From contig OZ220691.1 of NCBI GenBank assembly GCA_965116475.1, forward strand, positions 288,001 through 352,000: a stretch of DNA of 64,000 nt, in the 5' to 3' direction. The translations under genes were made by a program, and so were the position numbers. Shown in pieces: positions 49,898-57,683 of this stretch (its first letter is position 1; each line of letters begins with the position of its first letter). A model generated the notes under the pieces. It worked only from the letters and a program-made list of their open reading frames with translations, made no database searches and had not been told where the DNA came from. Source of the DNA: Gemmatimonadota bacterium (GTDB taxonomy: Bacteria > Gemmatimonadota > Gemmatimonadetes > Palauibacterales > Palauibacteraceae).

Positions 49898-51643
49898 CTA
49901 GGGTTCGACGAATACGTCGCGCCACGCGAGGCGCGTCAGGAGTTCGAGTTCCACGCCCTCGTCAACGCCTCGCACTCTCAGCACGGCCGGCTCCCCGAGG
50001 GGGACGCCGCAAACCGCAAACCTGCCCCGCTCATCCGACTCCCCGCCGGCGTACTCGGACTGTTCGGACACGGCGACGGCTCGCGCCGTGCCCTGGAGCC
50101 GGCGCACGCGCCACACGACCTCGACCTCGATGTCCGGCACCGGGAGCCCCGTGTCGGCATCGCGCGCGAACCCGACCACGGCGCCCGCACTTCCGTAGGG
50201 CGACGAACCGGGACAGACGCGCGCGAACAGGGCGTCGCTGGACGGCGTCCACAGCTCCAGCGGATCGCTCGTTCCGTCTTCGACCACTACACGGGCCTCG
50301 TTGAGCCGCACTCCCGCCGCCTGGAGTTTCGGGTGGTCCACGCCCAGCGCGTAGACGCCATCCGGCAGCCCCGCCACCTGGAAGCCGCCCGCCTCGTCCG
50401 TGACCGCGCTGAACGGGACGTCGGCCGCCCTCGGCCGGGGCAGGAAGGCCGCGGCGTCATTCCAGTCGCGGACGACGATTTCCGCGCCCGCGAGCGGCCC
50501 GCCGCTCACGCTGTCCCGCAGCACGCCCGTGACCGCGCCCTCGCCCACCTCGAAGGCGACGCCGCCCGCGAAGGCGTCCGTCACCGTGCCTCCCGCCTGG
50601 CGATAGGCGACGAGAACCGGATCCGGACGTGCGGACAGGCCCGCCCTGAAGCGTGTGCTGCGGCTCCCGATCGGGAACCGCACCCACCAGTCGCGGACGT
50701 AGAAGGGGCCGTCCGGCAGGCGGTCGAACGTGAGATCGGCGCCGATGTGCCGCCGTTGCGCGTTTCGCGGCATTGGGACGTTGCGGTACCGGATCTGCAC
50801 GCGGCGCAGTTCCGCGCTCTGCTCGTCGAGCCAGAGCGTGCCCTCGATGTCGATCACATCGCGCCGCCGTTGCGGGCGGAACGTGATGCCGAGCATCGGT
50901 TCGCCGTCGACCTCGGCGCGTTCCAGCCCGAAACACTGGGTGTCGCGGAACTCCGACGACAGCAGCACCGTCGCGTCCGGTGCGTAGTAGACAGCGGAGT
51001 CCGCGTTCACGACCGCGTAGCCGGAGGTCGTGAGCCGGCGGGCCGGCAGGCTCCGGAACGGAGGCAGTCGAACGTGCCGCCGCGTGCGGCTCTCCGCCTC
51101 CAGCGTCGTGAGATGGCGCGGATCGAGCGTGCGCTGGTATTCCCGGAGCGTGAACGTGAGTTCGCCCCGGCCCTCCGCCCACACCGCGGTCTCGAGCGCC
51201 TTGCGCGCCTCCTCCCAGACCGTGGCGAGGGCGGCCCCCTCGCTCGGATCGTCCAGGCAGGATCCGGTGACCTCGACGCGCAGGTCGCCGAGCCGGACGG
51301 GATCCGGCGGGACTTCCACCGCGATCGTGAGCGGCTGCCCGACCCTCACCTCGTAGGGCTCCGTGACCCAGTTGGCGTATCCGATACGCTCCACGCGGAT
51401 CCGATACCGGCCGGGGCCGGGCGCCCTGAACGAGAAGATCCCATCGGCCGCCGTGAAGTCGGCCTCCACGGCCTCGCCCGCGCTGTTCAGCAGGCTGACG
51501 AAACCGCCCCCGATGGGTCGGCCGCCATCGGTCTCGCGCACGGTGCCGCTGATTTGCTGCGCCGCCGCCGGCGGTGCGATCCCGGCCGAGAGGGCGGCCG
51601 AGAGCGCGGCCACCGCGAGGCCGGCGAGAAGGCGGCGACTCAT
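49898..51643 (-). CDS. Exported protein with multiple carboxypeptidase-regulatory-like domains
   Basis: Signal peptide; repeated G.VRD...G.P..G..V / TD..G.F....P.G.Y modules. Confidence 0.8.
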   Translation of the reverse strand: MSRRLLAGLAVAALSAALSAGIAPPAAAQQISGTVRETDGGRPIGGGFVSLLNSAGEAVEADFTAADGIFSFRAPGPGRYRIRVERIGYANWVTEPYEVRVGQPLTIAVEVPPDPVRLGDLRVEVTGSCLDDPSEGAALATVWEEARKALETAVWAEGRGELTFTLREYQRTLDPRHLTTLEAESRTRRHVRLPPFRSLPARRLTTSGYAVVNADSAVYYAPDATVLLSSEFRDTQCFGLERAEVDGEPMLGITFRPQRRRDVIDIEGTLWLDEQSAELRRVQIRYRNVPMPRNAQRRHIGADLTFDRLPDGPFYVRDWWVRFPIGSRSTRFRAGLSARPDPVLVAYRQAGGTVTDAFAGGVAFEVGEGAVTGVLRDSVSGGPLAGAEIVVRDWNDAAAFLPRPRAADVPFSAVTDEAGGFQVAGLPDGVYALGVDHPKLQAAGVRLNEARVVVEDGTSDPLELWTPSSDALFARVCPGSSPYGSAGAVVGFARDADTGLPVPDIEVEVVWRVRRLQGTARAVAVSEQSEYAGGESDERGRFAVCGVPLGEPAVLRVRGVDEGVELELLTRLAWRDVFVEP

Positions 51644-51650
51644 GGGCGCG

Positions 51651-53669
51651 TCAGTCGGCGAGGCGTAGCGCCATCAGCGTGTTGGGAGCCTGGATCACGA
51701 CGTGCTGCCTGCCTTCGTGCAGGTACGTCATCATCCCGTACCGCGGCTGGGCCGGAAGCTCGACCCGCCCGAGCCGCTCGCCCGTCGTCTTGTCCACCGC
51801 GAACAGGTACGAGGTCCCGTCGCTCCCCTCCCCCGTGTACATGAGCAGAGTGCTCGTGACGATCTGCGCCGCCTGCCGCCCCGTGCCCGTGTTCGGGATG
51901 TCCATGCCCTGGAGCGCGTCGTGCTCGAGCACGCTGTTCGGCGTATCGCCCACCGGAATCCACCACAGGTGCTCGCCCGTGTTCATGTCGATCGCCGTGA
52001 TCCGGCTGTACGGCGGCTTGAAGAGCGGCAGGCCCTGCACCCGCCGCACGCCGGCGAACCCGCCGACCGCGAACTTCGTGATCGTCGTGCCCGTCTGCGC
52101 GGGCTCCCGCGCGTCGCGCTCCTCCCCCGGCACCATGATCCGCGACCCGCACCCCTTCTGCGACGTCACGTACAGGATGCCCGTCTCCGGATCCGCCGCC
52201 GGCGTCCCGTCGATGTTCGTCCCCCCCACATCTCCCGGACACCACATCGAGGCCATCTTGCCGAGGTCGTTGTCCCGGTGCAGCGGCGGCGTGAACAGCG
52301 GTCCGATCACGTAGTCGTCGAGCGCCTCGATCGCGGCCTCCCGCAACTCCGGCGTGAAGTCGATCAGGTCGTCGTGCGTCAGCCCCTGCATGTCGTACGG
52401 CGCCGGCCAGGTGGGGAACGGCTGCGTCGGCGAGAGCGCCTCGCCCGGCATGAGTCCCTCGGGCACCGGCCGCTCCTCGATGGGCCAGATCGGCTCGCCC
52501 GTCTCCCGGTTGAACGCGTACGCGAAGGCCTGCTTCGTGACCTGAACGACCGCCGGAATGTCCTCGCCATCCACCGTCACATCCATCAGCACGGGGATCT
52601 GCGGCGTGTCGTAGTTCCATATGTCGTGGTGCACGAGCTGAAAGTGCCAAACCCGTTCTCCCGTCTGCACATCGAGCGCGATCAGGCTCGTCGAGAACAG
52701 GTTGTCGCCCGGCCGGAACCCGCCCCAGAAGTCCATCGTGGCCCCGTTGGTGGGGATGTAGACGATCCCCCGCTCCTCGTCCGCCGAGAGCGGCGCCCAC
52801 GAGGAGATGTCCCCGGTCCACTCCCAGGCATCGTTCTCCCACGTCTCGTGACCGAACTCGCCCGGCCCCGGGAGAACGTTGAACTTCCACATGAAGTCGC
52901 CCGTGCGGGCGTCGTAGCCGAGAATGTCGCCCGGCACGTTCTCGCGCCGCGACTGGTTGTAACCCTGCTCGGCGGAGTTCCCGACCACGATCACGCCGTT
53001 AACGACGATCGGGGGCGACGAACTCGTGATGTAGCCGGTCTCGAGGGGGATGCCATGGTACGGGTCGAACTCGTGCCCGAGTCCCGCGAGCAGGTCGACG
53101 ACCCCCGACTCCGGGAATCCCGGCACGCCCACGGGCCCGCCGAAACCCTCTACGTGCTCGCCCGTGTCGGCCCACAGCGCATGCAGGAAGAAGGCGGGAC
53201 TCACCATGTAGACGACCGCGCGGCCGTCGATCTCTCCGTACGCGACGCCCTTCCCGTGGTTCTTCCGCATCGAGTACTCCCAGCGGAAGGTCTCGGGCTC
53301 GACGTACTCCCAGGTCTTCTCCCCGGTGCCGGCGTCGATCGCGTAGGTGTGCCGCTTCTCGCCCGCCACGGAAATCAGCATCCCGTCCACGTAGATCGGC
53401 GTGGCGCGCGCGTTCACCGCCGGGTAGTCCGACCCGTCCCAGACCCACGCGACCTCGAGATCCTCGAACGTCTCCGCGTCGATCTGGCCGAGAGATGAAT
53501 AGCGCTGGCCCATGTCGTTGCCGGCGATGTTCTTCCACTCCGTGCCGTTCGGGGCGCTCCCGCCGCCTTCCGCGCAGCCCGCCACGGCGACGACAAGCGC
53601 GAGCAGAGGGGAGATGAGGCGGAGCCTTGGCGGCGGCGCATGGGATGATGTTGAGCGCGCTCTGCTCAT
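51651..53669 (-). CDS. PQQ-dependent (glucose/quinate-type) dehydrogenase-like lipoprotein
   Basis: Lipobox VAGC; RYS.L.QI, SSSPP, G.DARTG, GDNLFS.S..ALD..TG..VWHFQ.VHHDIWNYD, KPPY..ITAIDMNTG. Confidence 0.88.
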   Translation of the reverse strand: MSRARSTSSHAPPPRLRLISPLLALVVAVAGCAEGGGSAPNGTEWKNIAGNDMGQRYSSLGQIDAETFEDLEVAWVWDGSDYPAVNARATPIYVDGMLISVAGEKRHTYAIDAGTGEKTWEYVEPETFRWEYSMRKNHGKGVAYGEIDGRAVVYMVSPAFFLHALWADTGEHVEGFGGPVGVPGFPESGVVDLLAGLGHEFDPYHGIPLETGYITSSSPPIVVNGVIVVGNSAEQGYNQSRRENVPGDILGYDARTGDFMWKFNVLPGPGEFGHETWENDAWEWTGDISSWAPLSADEERGIVYIPTNGATMDFWGGFRPGDNLFSTSLIALDVQTGERVWHFQLVHHDIWNYDTPQIPVLMDVTVDGEDIPAVVQVTKQAFAYAFNRETGEPIWPIEERPVPEGLMPGEALSPTQPFPTWPAPYDMQGLTHDDLIDFTPELREAAIEALDDYVIGPLFTPPLHRDNDLGKMASMWCPGDVGGTNIDGTPAADPETGILYVTSQKGCGSRIMVPGEERDAREPAQTGTTITKFAVGGFAGVRRVQGLPLFKPPYSRITAIDMNTGEHLWWIPVGDTPNSVLEHDALQGMDIPNTGTGRQAAQIVTSTLLMYTGEGSDGTSYLFAVDKTTGERLGRVELPAQPRYGMMTYLHEGRQHVVIQAPNTLMALRLAD

Positions 53670-53684
53670 CGAAAACCTCTCAAT

Positions 53685-53728
53685 CGGAGTTGGATCAACG
53701 ACCGTCCGGAGTTGGATCAACGACCGTC
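53685..53728. repeat. Perfect 22-bp tandem duplication (CGGAGTTGGATCAACGACCGTC x2)
   Basis: Read directly; just upstream of the PQQ dehydrogenase RBS. Confidence 0.92.
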
Positions 53729-53800
53729 GACGCGGCCGGTGCGGGCGGCGGCACACGAGTGGTGAACCTGAGACGCACCTGATCCGGCGGTCAAGCGAGC

Positions 53801-53840
53801 AAGAGACAAGCCCTCCCCGGGCATCGCGCCGGGGAGGGCT
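53801..53840 (-). terminator. Probable intrinsic terminator after the TBDT/His-rich lipoprotein operon
   Basis: 12-bp perfect stem agccctccccgg/ccggggagggct with 8-nt loop, followed on minus strand by TGTCTCTT. Confidence 0.7.
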
Positions 53841-53877: not shown

Positions 53878-54363
53878 TTAGTGTTCGTGCACGTGCACGT
53901 GGAGGGGTGCGGTGACGAAGTCCGCGTGTCCCGACCCGACGGCGCCGTGCATGAGGCTGAAAGTGAGCTCGGTGTCGCCCTCCGCCACGCCGTGCAGGTG
54001 TCCCCCGAACTCACCCGGAGTATCCTGCTCGAACTCGGCGATGGATTCGTTCGCGACGTCCACCCGCAGATAGAAGTCATCGTCGAGCGTGACCGCGTGC
54101 CCGTCGTGGTCCACGAACTGCACGCCGATATGGGCGGTTTCCTCGCCCGGCTCGACTTCCAGTTCTCCGGTCCAGGCTCCATCGTCTCCATCATAGGAGG
54201 CGACGGTCTGGCCGCTCAGCGACAGGACCACGCCCTCGACTTCTCCGGCGTGATCATCGTGGTCGTCCCCGGGGTCCATGGGATCGTCGCCGCCGCAGGC
54301 GGAAAGGACCAGCAGTCCCGCGGTCGCCAGGGCGAGTGACAGTTTCGGCTGAAAGTGTCTCAT
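53878..54363 (-). CDS. His/Asp-rich putative metal-binding lipoprotein
   Basis: GAGGTG RBS before ATG 54363; lipobox LSAC; DDHDDH, DHDGH, GHLH, terminal HVHVHEH. Confidence 0.8.
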   Translation of the reverse strand: MRHFQPKLSLALATAGLLVLSACGGDDPMDPGDDHDDHAGEVEGVVLSLSGQTVASYDGDDGAWTGELEVEPGEETAHIGVQFVDHDGHAVTLDDDFYLRVDVANESIAEFEQDTPGEFGGHLHGVAEGDTELTFSLMHGAVGSGHADFVTAPLHVHVHEH

Positions 54364-54406
54364 TGTCTTCACCTCGTTGTGTTGATGTTCCGGTCGCCTC
54401 GTACCT

Positions 54407-56623
54407 CTAGAAGACGACGCGATAGGCCACGCTGATGGATCGCCCGGCTTCGGGCATGATCTCCTTCACGCGCGACAAGTGGTTTCTGTACACTGCATTG
54501 CCAAGGTTCTCTCCCCGCACGGTGATCACGTTCAGCCGCCCCATGACCGTGATCCGCAGTCCGGCGGAGAGATCGAACAAGGCATATCCATCGGTGGGGT
54601 CCTCGAAGGGCCCCGTCCGGTCCTGCCGAGCCGCAATCCGCGTTTCGGCTTCGACGAACCAGTCGCGAGGCGCGTAGCCGACGGCGAAGCGCGCCTGCAG
54701 CGGCGGGATGAGCGGAAGCGGTTCGTCCGTCGCTTCGATTCTGGCCTGGACGTACGAAGCGACGGCCTCCACGGTCAGATCCCCGACCGGCGCCCACTCG
54801 AGCGCGCCCTCGAATCCCGTGAGCACCGCGTCTTCTCCCTGGAACTGGAAGATCGGCAGCCGCACGCGGCTCAGCTCTCCCGTCTCGAGCGGGAAGACGT
54901 AGTCCTCGATGGCGTTGTGGAACCACGTCAGCTCGGCGTTCAGCCGGTCTCCCGCAAACCGGGCGAAGAGGTCGATCCCGATCCCGCGCTCCGTCTCGAG
55001 CGACGGGTTCCCCACCTCGAAGGCATAGGCCGCCAGGTGGGGACCTTCGGAGTAGAGCTCGTTGACGCTCGGAGTGCGAAAGGCCCGCGCGACGGAAGCG
55101 CCCACCGTGAAGCTCTGCGTGAGCTGTGCCAGGGCCCCCAGCGATCCCGATGCCGCACCGAACGACCTCTCGCGGATGTGGCCGATGTCGGATGAGGGAT
55201 CCTCCCGGTCGGGCCGCACGCGTACCCAGTCGTATCGGAGGCCCGCTTCCAGTCGTATCGGACTCAGGTCGACCTCTTCCAGCGCGAATACGGCGAAGGA
55301 CGTCTGCGTGGAGTTCGGCGTGAAGAGGCTGCCTCCGAATCCGAAGTCCTCCCAGGAAGCCCGCGTTCCCACGCCTCCCGAAGAGAACGGGCCCCACCCG
55401 CCGTGGCGGGCGAGGATGTCGCCGCTCACGGTCTGGCGCTCGAAGAGCGTGCCCAGGATGTCGGGGGGCTCGATCTCCTTGTGCTCGTACCACGTGTGTC
55501 CCGCATCGACCTCGATGCTCTCGACGACCCCTTGCGGCCGAATCACGCTGCGCAGCCGGGTCGCGGCCCGCTGCATCTCGACGCGAACCCCGGCCGCGTG
55601 CCCCCCGACGAACCCTCCGGGGATGCCGTAGTCGTTGCCGTAGTAGCGGAAGGTCGCGCCGGCGTGTCCCCAGTCGTCCACCCAGGACGTACCGCCGGAA
55701 ATCTCCCGAATATCCGTACTCGTATTCCCCAGGAGCCCGACCGGGGTCTCCAGGTCGCCGCTGCTGCGACCCGTGACCTCCAGCCGCACGGGGATGTGTT
55801 CGGTCAGGCCATACGTGAGATGCAGGCTTCCGCTCGCCGCGTTGCTGACGCTCTGTCCCTGAAGCGTCAACGCGCCCGTGAGGTGGTGCGGGACGGATGA
55901 GGGCACGTCATCGCGGACGACGTTGATGACGCCCCCCAGCGCGTTGCTTCCGTACAGAATCGCACCCGGCCCGCGGATCACCTCGACGCGACGCGCCGAC
56001 GACGGATCGATCGCCGTGGCGTGGTCGGGGCCGCTCGCAAACTCGTCGCCGATCCGTTCCCCGTCCTCGAGCAGCAGGATGCGGTCTCCGCTCAGCCCCC
56101 GGATCACGGGGTGCGCAGAGGCCGGCCCCATGCTGCTCACCGCGAGGCCAGGCTCGGAGGTCAGGGTTTCGGCCAGGGTTCCGGCCAGGCGACGCTGCAG
56201 ATCCTCCCCCGCGAAGACGCTGGTCGGACGCAGCACTTCGTTCGCCGCGCGGGCCACCACGGACCCCGTGACCACGAGATCCGGCAGGGAGATGGGATTG
56301 GCTTCCATCTCCACCACCACGATCTCCTCCCGGGACGCATCGACTTCCAGCGAGACCGTCCGGTAGCCCAGGCGTTCGACCCGCACCGTGTAGACGCGCG
56401 GCCCCGGCACCGGGACATGGAACGTCCCGTCGCCGTGCGAGACGGCCGTCCGACCCGCCGCGGCGATGGAGACCAGGGCGCTGGCGAGCGGCTCATCGGA
56501 GTCGGCATCGCGCACGATGCCCTCGATCTCGCCCGCGTGCTCCACCTGCGCGGACGAGCCGATGGCTCCGAGAGCCATTGCCAGTGCGGCCGTAATGAAA
56601 CCGGCCAGACGCCTTGTCGCCAT
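54407..56623 (-). CDS. TonB-dependent receptor, ZnuD-like (probable metal uptake)
   Basis: Signal peptide; DLVVTG TonB box; P.IRGL.G.R, GPDHA, VEVIRGP.AILYG..A.GGVIN; ELYSEGPH.A...FEVG; NHLS; terminal Phe. Confidence 0.9.
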   Translation of the reverse strand: MATRRLAGFITAALAMALGAIGSSAQVEHAGEIEGIVRDADSDEPLASALVSIAAAGRTAVSHGDGTFHVPVPGPRVYTVRVERLGYRTVSLEVDASREEIVVVEMEANPISLPDLVVTGSVVARAANEVLRPTSVFAGEDLQRRLAGTLAETLTSEPGLAVSSMGPASAHPVIRGLSGDRILLLEDGERIGDEFASGPDHATAIDPSSARRVEVIRGPGAILYGSNALGGVINVVRDDVPSSVPHHLTGALTLQGQSVSNAASGSLHLTYGLTEHIPVRLEVTGRSSGDLETPVGLLGNTSTDIREISGGTSWVDDWGHAGATFRYYGNDYGIPGGFVGGHAAGVRVEMQRAATRLRSVIRPQGVVESIEVDAGHTWYEHKEIEPPDILGTLFERQTVSGDILARHGGWGPFSSGGVGTRASWEDFGFGGSLFTPNSTQTSFAVFALEEVDLSPIRLEAGLRYDWVRVRPDREDPSSDIGHIRERSFGAASGSLGALAQLTQSFTVGASVARAFRTPSVNELYSEGPHLAAYAFEVGNPSLETERGIGIDLFARFAGDRLNAELTWFHNAIEDYVFPLETGELSRVRLPIFQFQGEDAVLTGFEGALEWAPVGDLTVEAVASYVQARIEATDEPLPLIPPLQARFAVGYAPRDWFVEAETRIAARQDRTGPFEDPTDGYALFDLSAGLRITVMGRLNVITVRGENLGNAVYRNHLSRVKEIMPEAGRSISVAYRVVF

Positions 56624-56779
56624 GGACAGCCTGCTTCGAAACGCGCCGGCGACCGCTCCTGCTCGAGGAAGGCCGGGCGCGTCGCTGAAACGCTTCAGCG
56701 GGTAACGTGTGTTCGGGAGACGTGTGATCCGCCTCCCGCGGGAGGTCGGGGGCTTCCGGGACAACGGCCCGGCAGCGGG

Positions 56780-57136
56780 TCAGGCTGGAGGAGGGGCTCT
56801 GGGACCGCTCCCGCCGGGCGGGATCGGGCGGCGTTGCCAGACGTTCGCGGTCGGGGTGTCGAGGCTGGTTTCGGCTACCGGCGACAGCTCGATCGGAATC
56901 AGGGGCGGGAACCCCACCGACACCGTGCGAGCCAGTTGGCACAGCAGGTGGCTGTGCCCGGGGTCTCCGTGCTCGCCGGGTTCCCCTTCGACGTGCACGA
57001 CGGCGTTCGCTGCTCCGGCTTCCAGCACCGCATCCACCGCCGGCAGCAAGGCGAACGCCACTGCCTGCAGGAGAACGATGGCCAGAGTGCCGAACCGGCG
57101 AAGGTCCCGCAGCTGTCGAGGAGGAATGGGCTTCAC
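56780..57136 (-). CDS. DUF2946/CruR-like leader protein with HSHxxC motif and C-terminal RAPP arrest motif
   Basis: Basic N-terminus + hydrophobic segment, H-rich segment ending HSHLLC, Pro-rich linker, ends GPRAPPPA-stop; directly upstream of TBDT. Start uncertain (GTG 57136 or ATG 57193). Confidence 0.72.
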   Translation of the reverse strand: MKPIPPRQLRDLRRFGTLAIVLLQAVAFALLPAVDAVLEAGAANAVVHVEGEPGEHGDPGHSHLLCQLARTVSVGFPPLIPIELSPVAETSLDTPTANVWQRRPIPPGGSGPRAPPPA

Positions 57137-57299
57137 GGCTATGCCGCCAGAGGTATTCCGGGCGCCGCCACAGGGCACTCCAGATGAGCGCATCAAGCTG
57201 CGTTCGGGGGGATAACGAGTCAAGCTTGCCGCGCGTGGCTAAACGGAGAGACCTTACGGGAGAGCACCCGGCATTGAGACGGAATCTGATGGGGATCTG

Positions 57300-57683
57300 A
57301 TGGGTAACCGGATTCGAAACCGGGCGGTCGTCCTGGCGACCGCCGCGTTGACGACGGCGGGCGTCTTCGTCTGCGCCCACCTCGCCCTCGAGAAGTCATC
57401 TCCCAAGGGGAATGAGACGGTGGCGATCAGCCCCCCGACGGTCACGTTGTGGTTCACGGAAGCCCCGCAGATGGCCGGGACGTCGGTTCGTCTCCTGCCG
57501 AAGGGGGGCGAACCCCTCGACCTCGAGCCGGCGACCGCCCAGGAGGATGACTCCAGCGTCGTCGTGCTGGACGTGAGCGAGGAGCTTGCCGACGGGGACT
57601 ACGAGGTCATGTGGCGAGCCATGGCGCAGGACGGCCACACGATCCGGGGCGACTTCGGTTTCACAGTGCAAACCGGCCGCTGA
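57300..57683 (+). CDS. copC: CopC-family periplasmic copper-binding protein
   Basis: Signal peptide with mature N-terminal His (A-HLAL..SSP), P..VTLWFTE, Y.V.WR....DGH...G.F.F.V. Confidence 0.9.
   Translation: MGNRIRNRAVVLATAALTTAGVFVCAHLALEKSSPKGNETVAISPPTVTLWFTEAPQMAGTSVRLLPKGGEPLDLEPATAQEDDSSVVVLDVSEELADGDYEVMWRAMAQDGHTIRGDFGFTVQTGR

Follow-up and report, generated by a model that had tools for sequence, protein, structure and literature searches.

The subject of this report is a short open reading frame (ORF) and the genes behind it on contig OZ220691.1 (GenBank assembly GCA_965116475.1) of a Gemmatimonadota bacterium of the family Palauibacteraceae. The window, by which we mean the whole stretch of DNA analysed, covers 64,000 nucleotides (nt) of that contig (positions 288,001 to 352,000), and coordinates are counted from its first letter. 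The ORF, a candidate arrest peptide resembling CruR and called the leader below, lies on the minus strand at 56780..57136, opens with GTG at 57136, closes with TGA at 56782-56780 and encodes 118 residues. Behind it on the same strand follow a conserved intergenic region of 156 nt (56624..56779) with several hairpins and a stretch richer in C than in G, a gene for a TonB-dependent receptor (54407..56623) and a gene for a His-rich lipoprotein (53878..54363). We consider it probable that the leader is a regulatory leader of the CruR/CutF (DUF2946) superfamily on which ribosomes stall at a C-terminal Arg-Ala-Pro-Pro (RAPP) motif, the metal sensed likely being Zn(II).

Residues 1-36 of the leader (57029..57136) make up a putative export signal or N-in anchor which, read by eye, consists of an Arg-rich n-region (RDLRRFG), a hydrophobic stretch of about 20 residues and the sequence PAVDA followed by VLEA, with small residues at -3 and -1 of the junction; P32, D35 and A36 at the signal end are unchanged in 35 homologues. 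A candidate metal-ligand block, delimited by conservation in 21 sequences, occupies residues 48-66 (56939..56995) with the pattern H-x-E-x-E-x3-H-G-x3-H-x-H-x2-C, residues 47-66 reading VHVEGEPGEHGDPGHSHLLC. The Pro-rich spacer that follows, bounded by the Cys-to-Arg distance, is variable in sequence and fixed in length, with 46 residues (67-112, 56801..56938) of which nine are Pro, and the peptide ends in RAPPPA (residues 113-118), so that RAPP occupies residues 113-116 of the 118. The RAPP codons AGA GCC CCT CCT (56789..56800), marked out by codon conservation, are the presumed stall site. An earlier reading of the letters without database searches (the sequence-only reading) had described the same anatomy, that is an ORF of about 118 residues with a signal or transmembrane segment, a His-rich stretch, a 46-residue Pro-rich spacer and a terminal RAPPPA, and its placement 156 nt upstream of a co-oriented TonB-dependent receptor and a His-rich lipoprotein is likewise confirmed.

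Of the 18 genus loci, 17 retain the GTG start and one has TTG in its place. An alternative frame of 147 residues opens at a TTG that falls within a conserved, -35-like TTGACT hexamer (57223-57218). With a 17-nt spacer and CAGCTT (57200-57195) this hexamer forms a block (57195..57223, minus strand) that conservation suggests to be promoter-like; it is near-invariant across the 18 genus loci, and a sister family has a similar upstream layout, TTGACA(C)-N16-18-TAGCGT-like. A sigma-70 promoter scan made no call on the TTGACT...CAGCTT block.

A word-index search returned 55 homologues of the leader at 54-100% identity, the named ones belonging to Candidatus Palauibacter and other Gemmatimonadota bins. 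The leader profile finds a match in 24 of 145 genomes of the order and, within the genus, in 18 of the 35 other genomes. Across the phylum, 146 of the 401 genomes sampled carry a match to the leader family. When 1.84 billion representatives were searched by profile, 518 proteins matched at E<=0.001, 97 of them at E<=1e-10. Invariant across 35 aligned homologues are P-A-x-D-A-V-L-E, H48, G-H-S-H-L-L-C-Q-L-x-R-T and R-P-x-P-x-G-G-S-G-P-R-A-P-P, and the final two residues are variable. When distant genera are included (21 sequences), H48, E50, H61 and C66 are still invariant, with E52 and H63 kept in at least 90%; most relatives carry an extra Cys eight residues upstream of Cys66, where the window copy has Gly57. 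Five weak matches from other genera share only the signal, the pattern H-[VI]-E-x-[EK]-H-x3-C-x3-H-x-[HE]-x-L-C and an AR[AGS]PP followed by 2-6 residues. The spacers of such distant leaders cannot be aligned, and their ends read ARAPPISS, ARAPPLS, ARSPPCST, ARGPPILA and ARAPPSFVTLA. Although the spacers diverge, all 56 sequences compared have 46-48 residues from Cys to Arg, a distance that is 46 in CruR.

Among the family hits in fetched loci, 85 of 86 retain Arg-x-Pro-Pro (RxPP), and these 85 leaders, from 83 fetched loci, were used for a codon census, with the hit that has no RxPP excluded. Arg is present in all 85 and is written with six codons (AGG 28, CGC 16, CGG 14, AGA 13, CGA 12, CGT 2), both Pro are likewise found in 85 of 85 with four codons each, and the second motif position is A in 68, G in 14, P in 2 and S in 1. 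Over 153 pairs within the genus all differences in the four RAPP codons are synonymous (99, 56, 71 and 56), and non-synonymous differences number 81 and 33 in the two codons after them. Because Arg and Pro are invariant while their codons vary, and because non-synonymous differences are absent from RAPP, the constraint lies on the peptide. Judged by these substitutions the leader is a real gene, with selection on its product that ends exactly at the second Pro, and a constraint stopping there is what would be predicted of a motif that arrests the ribosome while occupying its P and A sites. Beyond the fetched loci, 144 of the 146 new representatives among the best 150 profile matches end in RxPP within 15 residues of the end (RAPP 125, RSPP 11, RGPP 6, RPPP 2). 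The sequence-only reading had left the conservation of the ORF and its RAPP in relatives, and synteny with the receptor, to be checked; these counts and those of the neighbouring genes given below bear it out on both.

The RAPP codons, in the window (56789-56800) and in the 84 related leaders, strongly favour codons that these GC-rich genomes otherwise use rarely. The first Pro is CCT in 37 and CCA in 15 of the 85 leaders against backgrounds of 6.2% and 5.7%, Ala is GCT in 25 of 68 against 5.8%, and Arg is AGG or AGA in 41 of 85 against 10.5%, counts that are non-independent as the leaders are related. Rare codons at the stall site may slow decoding or take part in RNA pairing, CCUCC being anti-Shine-Dalgarno-like.

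Pfam (E<=1) and NCBIfam gave no family for the leader, and a search of the whole genome with PF11162 at E<=10 did not return the leader locus. Profile-profile comparison, however, ties the leader family to 16 Gemmatimonadota CxxC/RAPP leaders that PF11162 does find (hhalign 97.2%, E 4.7e-11 over 111 columns), and a comparison of the single-Cys class with the CxxC class gave 99.8% with E 4.8e-30; of the 79 CxxC members, 13 hit PF11162 at E<=0.01. Of the 144 new RxPP-ending representatives, 79 have CxxC and 65 a single Cys, and in 22 of the 301 genomes sampled from the phylum PF11162 itself finds similar CxxC leaders. In the alignment HDHl.CqlVrs lies over HDH..CQLCR, and HSHLLCQLAR of the single-Cys side stands against HDHlfCQLCR. 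Cys66 is thereby aligned with the Cys that opens CxxC, and the second Cys is the one lost (the window reads C66-Q-L-A69, and this position is T, A, S or V in the single-Cys class); the HxH upstream of the Cys is common to both. The sequence-only reading had taken the first Cys to be replaced by His, which the alignment corrects, and its proposed kinship with DUF2946 holds between profiles, not with the Pfam model itself. By these alignments the leader family shares its ancestry with the DUF2946-type leaders; we describe it as a divergent branch of the DUF2946/CruR superfamily, one beyond the reach of the Pfam model.

The leader is single-copy in its own genome. Outside the window that genome has a second leader of canonical form (G000:C1:411457-411654, minus strand; locus L048:1486-1878, minus strand; HSHDDDADSPAACSICE...), in which 45 residues separate CxxC from a RAPP placed six residues ahead of the stop; it gives a weak PF11162 match of 16.5 bits, and an ABC-transporter ATPase gene follows it. 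The genome therefore holds both classes of leader.

The receptor has CarboxypepD_reg, Plug and barrel domains by Pfam. Its ATG at 56623 is conserved, M..RRLAG being found in 18 of 18 genus loci, and the gap between leader and receptor ranges from 154 to 184 nt across the genus. Its best NCBIfam model is ZnuD (NF038289, 197.9 bits against a cut-off of 950), the TonB-copper model scoring 100.6 bits. Among solved structures the best relative by sequence is ZnuD of Neisseria meningitidis (4rdr, E 1.8e-33, residues 114-336); the haem receptor PhuR and the copper receptor OprC rank lower, and OprC matches residues 501-719 with 70.9 bits as compared with 119 bits for ZnuD. The resemblance to ZnuD is limited to the plug and the first barrel strands, and unlike ZnuD the window receptor has an additional N-terminal CarboxypepD_reg domain. 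The lipoprotein (lipobox LSAC, 14 His in 161 residues) is modelled as an Ig-like beta-sandwich with a mean pLDDT of 86.4. A sequence-profile search of the PDB gave no match for it and a fold search returned only generic Ig/Big-like folds, the top one an S-layer domain (E 3.6e-4, TM 0.43), for which reason the fold says nothing on metal.

After the lipoprotein gene a GC-rich 11-bp inverted repeat can be read from the sequence (53811..53840, minus strand), a possible terminator. The repeat only partly bears out the terminator named in the sequence-only reading, a terminator scan having called none, this repeat included. The shared gene order extends farther, over about 50780-53756 of the window on the minus strand: a gene for a PQQ-dependent dehydrogenase (PF01011, 1.1e-163), found in 17 of 18 genus loci, is followed by a second receptor-like gene in the 16 whose fetched region goes that far. 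RNA-library contigs from a sponge metatranscriptome, belonging to a relative about 96% identical, cover the receptor and lipoprotein genes. One contig of 613 nt bridges 56297-56903, taking in the 5' part of the receptor gene, all of the intergenic region and the final 120 nt of the leader, although DNA carry-over is possible; it is weak evidence, a contig not being proof of a single transcript. Its differences in the RAPP region are synonymous by reading (GCC to GCT at 56795, CCA to CCG at 56786). The contigs leave 57002-57255 uncovered, a gap that is no evidence on transcription.

The neighbourhoods of 85 leaders were compiled from the window and 82 further regions, with genes called by a heuristic based on GC at third codon positions (GC3) and labelled by phmmer against Pfam-annotated seeds. 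For 68 of the 85, a TonB receptor comes next on the same strand. For 14 the next such gene is that of an outer-membrane protein of 430-460 residues that matches no Pfam family and mostly has ZnuA and an ABC-3 permease behind it; for one it is a lipoprotein and for one it is unlabelled, and in a last case the next gene is on the opposite strand. A receptor or a ZnuA-type operon thus follows 82 of 85 leaders. Genes for ZnuA, ABC-3, ZIP or CDF proteins occur within -3 to +5 genes of 18 of the 85, and a His-rich lipoprotein lies downstream of 42 (39 of 62 single-Cys and 3 of 23 CxxC leaders). The best curated models, all below their cut-offs, are AztC (zinc) for the binding protein (91 of 350 bits), ZupT for the ZIP proteins and ZnuD for the receptors; the permease scores best with an 'anchored repeat-type' ABC permease (85.5 bits) and then with AztB, a zinc permease (63.2 bits), while the one CDF protein is ZitB-like (266.9 bits against a cut-off of 408). 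Zinc is the likeliest signal because homologous leaders head ZnuA/ABC-3 operons and stand beside ZIP genes, and because the closest solved relative of the receptor is ZnuD. For the family, then, the neighbourhood suggests zinc over copper, whereas in the window's own genus the adjoining metal gene is CopC. The leader copy itself has one Cys, many His and Glu ligands and no Met-rich site. Taken together we rate zinc as the most likely metal at slightly better than even, give copper a distinctly smaller share, and leave what remains to other metals or a mixed specificity. The non-copper orientation put forward by the sequence-only reading is supported by the ZnuA/ABC-3 and ZIP contexts and by the ZnuD-like receptor, but CopC in the genus leaves copper some probability.

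Several of the related loci have features of their own. In L082 (G271:C1:2231332-2248342) two modules stand in tandem within 4 kb, a leader, receptor and lipoprotein and then a second leader and receptor, and the two leaders have diverged (GHCHLLCELTRT as against GHSHLLCQLTRT). L116 and L123 each carry two different CxxC leaders, one before the outer-membrane protein and ZnuA (with the ABC-3 permease in L116, the corresponding gene in L123 being unlabelled), the other directly after the ZnuA operon and before a TonB receptor. In L043, L044, L046, L047, L086 and L094, of the sister family, a conserved AAAGATACGCG element is located about 30 nt upstream of the TTGACAC -35 box, between a divergent ZIP gene and the leader; it may be the -10 of the ZIP promoter on the other strand, or an operator. 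Genes for QueD-type (PTPS) proteins, GTP cyclohydrolase I and, in some of the loci, short-chain dehydrogenases cluster beside leader and ZIP in L043, L045, L046, L047, L086, L094, L104, L112 and L120. These enzyme families use zinc as a cofactor.

In the mechanism that we propose, the leader would be made as a secreted or membrane-targeted nascent peptide and the ribosome would stall at its C-terminal Arg-Ala-Pro-Pro, with Pro115 and Pro116 assigned to the P and A sites by analogy with CruR. In the stalled complex the His/Glu/Cys block (48-66) would lie 49-67 residues from the peptidyl-transferase centre, just beyond the exit tunnel. Without metal, a ribosome held at the end of the leader would keep the C-rich RNA from Rho-type premature termination, or hold it open, and the receptor and lipoprotein would be made. 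Metal bound to the nascent block would fold or pull the chain, the stall would be lifted, the leader would be finished and the operon would go off. This CruR-type logic is the likeliest because the downstream genes are importers. The parts that we infer are stalling itself, which way the switch works, the Rho step and which metal is sensed. The C/G ratio is 1.3-2.0 from about 56900 to 56720, spanning the 3' third of the leader and the start of the intergenic region, and together with the long conserved gap it would fit the Rho-type scheme of CruR better at the window locus than direct masking of the ribosome-binding site (RBS). Provided that the leader is regulatory at all, Rho-type attenuation is about an even proposition and translational unmasking a less probable one; an attenuator-like cascade of hairpins is possible.

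A number of results weigh against this reading. With regard to the family, the leader does not reach the gathering score of PF11162 (23.7 bits), at E<=0.01 that model recovers only 1 of 66 single-Cys members, and one of the 86 family hits, in L098, is without RxPP. With regard to zinc, genes of zinc type are near 1 of the 18 leaders of the window's genus, as compared with 9 of 44 other single-Cys and 8 of 23 CxxC leaders, and within the genus CopC is the sole metal gene adjoining the leader (12 of 18 loci). CxxC leaders also head ZnuA operons (5 of 23), so that loss of the second Cys is by itself no marker of zinc. The family matches of zinc type are, by their scores, far below curated cut-offs (ZnuD 197.9/950, AztC 91/350, ZitB 267/408), and Mn and Fe are also among the metals carried by the solute-binding protein (SBP) and ABC-3 families. 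Inspection by eye and a palindrome scan recognised no Zur-like operator upstream of the leader, which is no proof of absence, as no Zur motif for Gemmatimonadota is known to us. On the side of the RNA, RNAalifold on the intergenic region, which is near-invariant in the genus, gave a covariation term of -0.39 with 3 of 51 pairs compensatory, a result that is uninformative because the genus sequences are too similar.

A competing explanation is that the leader is a CruR-type arrest peptide that senses copper; the receptor would then import copper, and its place near CopC would match the arrangement of many cruR operons. A gene for a CopC-domain periplasmic copper-binding protein (57300..57683, plus strand; PF04234, 2.1e-20), absent from the sequence-only reading, is the divergent neighbour of the leader and may or may not belong to the unit. 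After the predicted cleavage between VCA and HLALEKSSP its mature form would start with His, presumably as in Cu(II)-binding CopC proteins. CopC occupies this place in 12 of the 18 genus loci, the window included; in L030 (G139:C4), from one species of the genus, it is replaced by a His-rich CDF gene, the ZitB-like one of 266.9 bits, and a 107-residue His/Cys-rich ORF. CopC, YcnI and PCuAC are the usual neighbours of cruR homologues (PMC9426467), Cys/His sites can bind Cu, and the receptor does resemble OprC over residues 501-719. However, CopC is on the opposite strand and is beside none of the 67 leaders outside the genus, the receptor is closer to ZnuD than to OprC and to the ZnuD model than to the TonB-copper model, homologous leaders sit in ZIP, ZnuA and ABC-3 loci, and the window copy has a single Cys and no Met-rich site. 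We regard copper sensing as unlikely. A different question is whether the stall acts on translation, the ribosome unfolding a helix that hides the receptor RBS in the manner of SecM or CutF, directly or through a hairpin cascade. CutF is reported to act in this way (10.1101/2025.02.05.636593). In the consensus fold one hairpin (GGCGGG/CCCGCU) encloses the RAPP codons and stop and another (GUCGCCG/UGGCGAC) the receptor RBS and AUG, and in the window CAGCCUG, which encodes Pro-Ala-stop, is complementary to CAGGCUG near the receptor RBS and pairs with it in the unconstrained fold; by reading of the alignments, most genus members keep only 5 bp of this 7-bp pairing. The segment from the PP codons to stop+8 was scored against -28 to +3 of its own downstream gene and of non-cognate ones, giving means over all loci that differ little: -16.8 for cognate, -15.1 for non-cognate and -14.7 for shuffled pairs. 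In 55 loci outside the genus 11 cognate pairings fall within the top 5%, where about 3 would be expected, and 15 within the top 10%, with downstream starts that are heuristic and in some cases wrong, and the helices involved differ in sequence yet remain complementary (L121, both copies of L123, L116, L105, L129). In the 18 genus loci, by contrast, the cognate median rank is 0.50 and that of the window 0.29, so direct pairing between leader end and receptor RBS was rejected for the window, cognate pairs being no better than non-cognate ones in the genus. Nor did a fold constrained to mimic a stalled ribosome expose the receptor RBS. Masking of the RBS by the leader end is thus seen in a subset of the family, as far as predicted pairing goes, and is unsupported at the window locus; a translational mode of action is rather unlikely there.

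Two explanations dispense with a nascent metal switch altogether. The ORF might encode a stable periplasmic or membrane metallochaperone passing metal to or from the receptor, with the RAPP end incidental or merely slowing translation, which would suit the putative export signal, the conserved ligands and the co-location with a metal importer and a His-rich protein. We hold this to be very unlikely: conservation is strongest at the last residues before the stop and ends at RAPP, the spacer varies freely in sequence but not in the distance it sets to the Cys, proteomes strongly avoid RAPP-like motifs other than for arrest (PMC12992588), and the CruR and CutF proteins are themselves undetectable and rapidly degraded (PMC9426467; 10.1101/2025.02.05.636593). 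Alternatively the leader could be a monitor of secretion or membrane insertion that reports Sec capacity, with no metal involved, as its RAPP and putative export signal resemble those of ApdA and ApdP (PMC10951233, PMC7897499). Leaders of the ApdA/ApdP/SecM type are upstream of localisation genes (secA, secDF, yidC), whereas ours precedes a TonB receptor and a lipoprotein with no Sec or YidC component, and a pure secretion monitor would not explain invariant His, Glu and Cys at a fixed distance; this we find the least credible of all.

Copper is so far the sole transition metal shown to act via a nascent arrest peptide (CruR, CutF). It is conceivable, though somewhat short of an even chance, that the Gemmatimonadota-wide branch of the CruR superfamily found here (146 of 401 sampled genomes, unannotated) is a zinc-sensing nascent chain in which Zn(II), bound to a His/Glu/Cys block just beyond the exit tunnel, releases a RAPP stall and so shuts off zinc importers, that is ZnuD-like receptors and ZnuA/ABC-3 operons. 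If true, a zinc version would extend the mechanism to a metal whose uptake is classically credited to Zur, as a post-transcriptional switch in place of or atop Zur, and nature would have its own equivalent of the engineered zinc-finger/SecM force sensors. How a little-studied phylum, represented here by a sponge-associated lineage, tunes its outer-membrane zinc import would be explained as well. The ligand block, the fixed spacer and RAPP form a compact natural module. A smaller but real gain lies in annotation, as about 500 representative 'hypothetical proteins' missed by Pfam become recognisable as regulatory leaders.

Published work already contains both the principle of the family and the idea of non-copper members. 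A set of 2,540 CutF-like proteins was divided into 29 clusters with Cys, His or mixed sites, and for His-only clusters adjoining HupE/UreJ genes nickel or cobalt sensing was proposed (PMC9973294), so the novelty of a non-copper sensor, as distinct from the orientation itself, was overstated in the sequence-only reading; the word zinc is absent from the main text of that paper. In Caulobacter DUF2946 genes are reported as affected by Zur, one of them located before czrCBA, in a Zur-regulon paper whose portion consulted here does not discuss arrest. A literature search on zinc together with RAPP or CruR gave only irrelevant matches. Measured against main texts, whose supplements may list the class, what appears new is a large Gemmatimonadota branch missed by Pfam, the single Cys and the wealth of His and Glu in its sensor block, the systematic association of the branch with ZnuD-like receptors, a His-rich lipoprotein of Ig-like fold and ZnuA/ZIP loci, and its marked use of rare codons at the stall motif.

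Of the known systems, the RAPP/RGPP upstream ORFs (uORFs) described in PMC12992588 (EMBO J 2025) share with the leader a small size, a signal sequence, which in the leader is putative, RAPP near the C-terminus and a TonB receptor downstream. That study found an enrichment of such small ORFs ahead of TonB-dependent receptor and copper genes, with robust arrest by RAPP and RGPP and partial permissiveness of RSPP, so the RGPP and RSPP variants among the relatives of the leader are motifs reported as arresting or partly permissive. As far as the main text of that paper goes, the class is treated by motif, neither zinc nor Gemmatimonadota is mentioned, and the leader family with its ligand block falls outside the treatment. 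CutF of Rhodobacter capsulatus resembles the leader in belonging to the DUF2946 superfamily and in having a Sec signal, putative in the leader, a Cys/His site and a C-terminal Pro-rich arrest motif. It works in the direction opposite to CruR, copper inducing a stall that melts a stem-loop over the cutO RBS (PMC9973294; 10.1101/2025.02.05.636593), and its target is a detoxifying oxidase where that of the leader is an importer. CutF further differs in its CxxxC, its PPP repeat, its dependence on EF-P and the melted RBS stem-loop, whereas direct RBS masking is unsupported at the leader locus.

The closest counterpart is CruR (Bp2923) of the cruR-bfrG-bp2921 operon of Bordetella pertussis, described by Roy et al. 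2022 (PMC9426467) as a DUF2946 leader that is exported, has 45 residues (constant to within 1-2) between its CXXC and its RAPP, and carries RAPP three residues short of the end. When copper is lacking, ribosomes stall at RAPP and Rho-dependent termination is blocked; copper acting through the CXXC lifts the stall, and lengthening the spacer by 5 residues breaks regulation. CruR arrests in the PURE system, and by toeprinting the two Pro codons of its RAPP occupy the P and A sites (PMC12992588). The leader, with its putative export signal, is like CruR a small first gene with a Cys-containing metal motif, 45-47 intervening residues and then RAPP 2-3 residues before the stop. Both are followed by a GC-rich intergenic region of about 160 nt (162 bp between cruR and bfrG) with a C>G stretch, which in Bordetella is a bubble reaching from the 3' part of cruR into the intergenic region (PMC9426467), then by a TonB-dependent receptor, and in both cases the genes are for import and call for a 'metal = off' logic. 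The leader differs in having no PF11162 match and a single Cys (C-Q-L-A) after HxH and H-x-E-x-E, in coming from Gemmatimonadota and not Proteobacteria, and in a third gene that encodes a His-rich Ig-like lipoprotein where the Bordetella operon has a PepSY_TM protein. Its comparative context is also of zinc type, whereas regulation by CruR is reported to be copper-specific with a moderate effect of zinc (PMC9426467).

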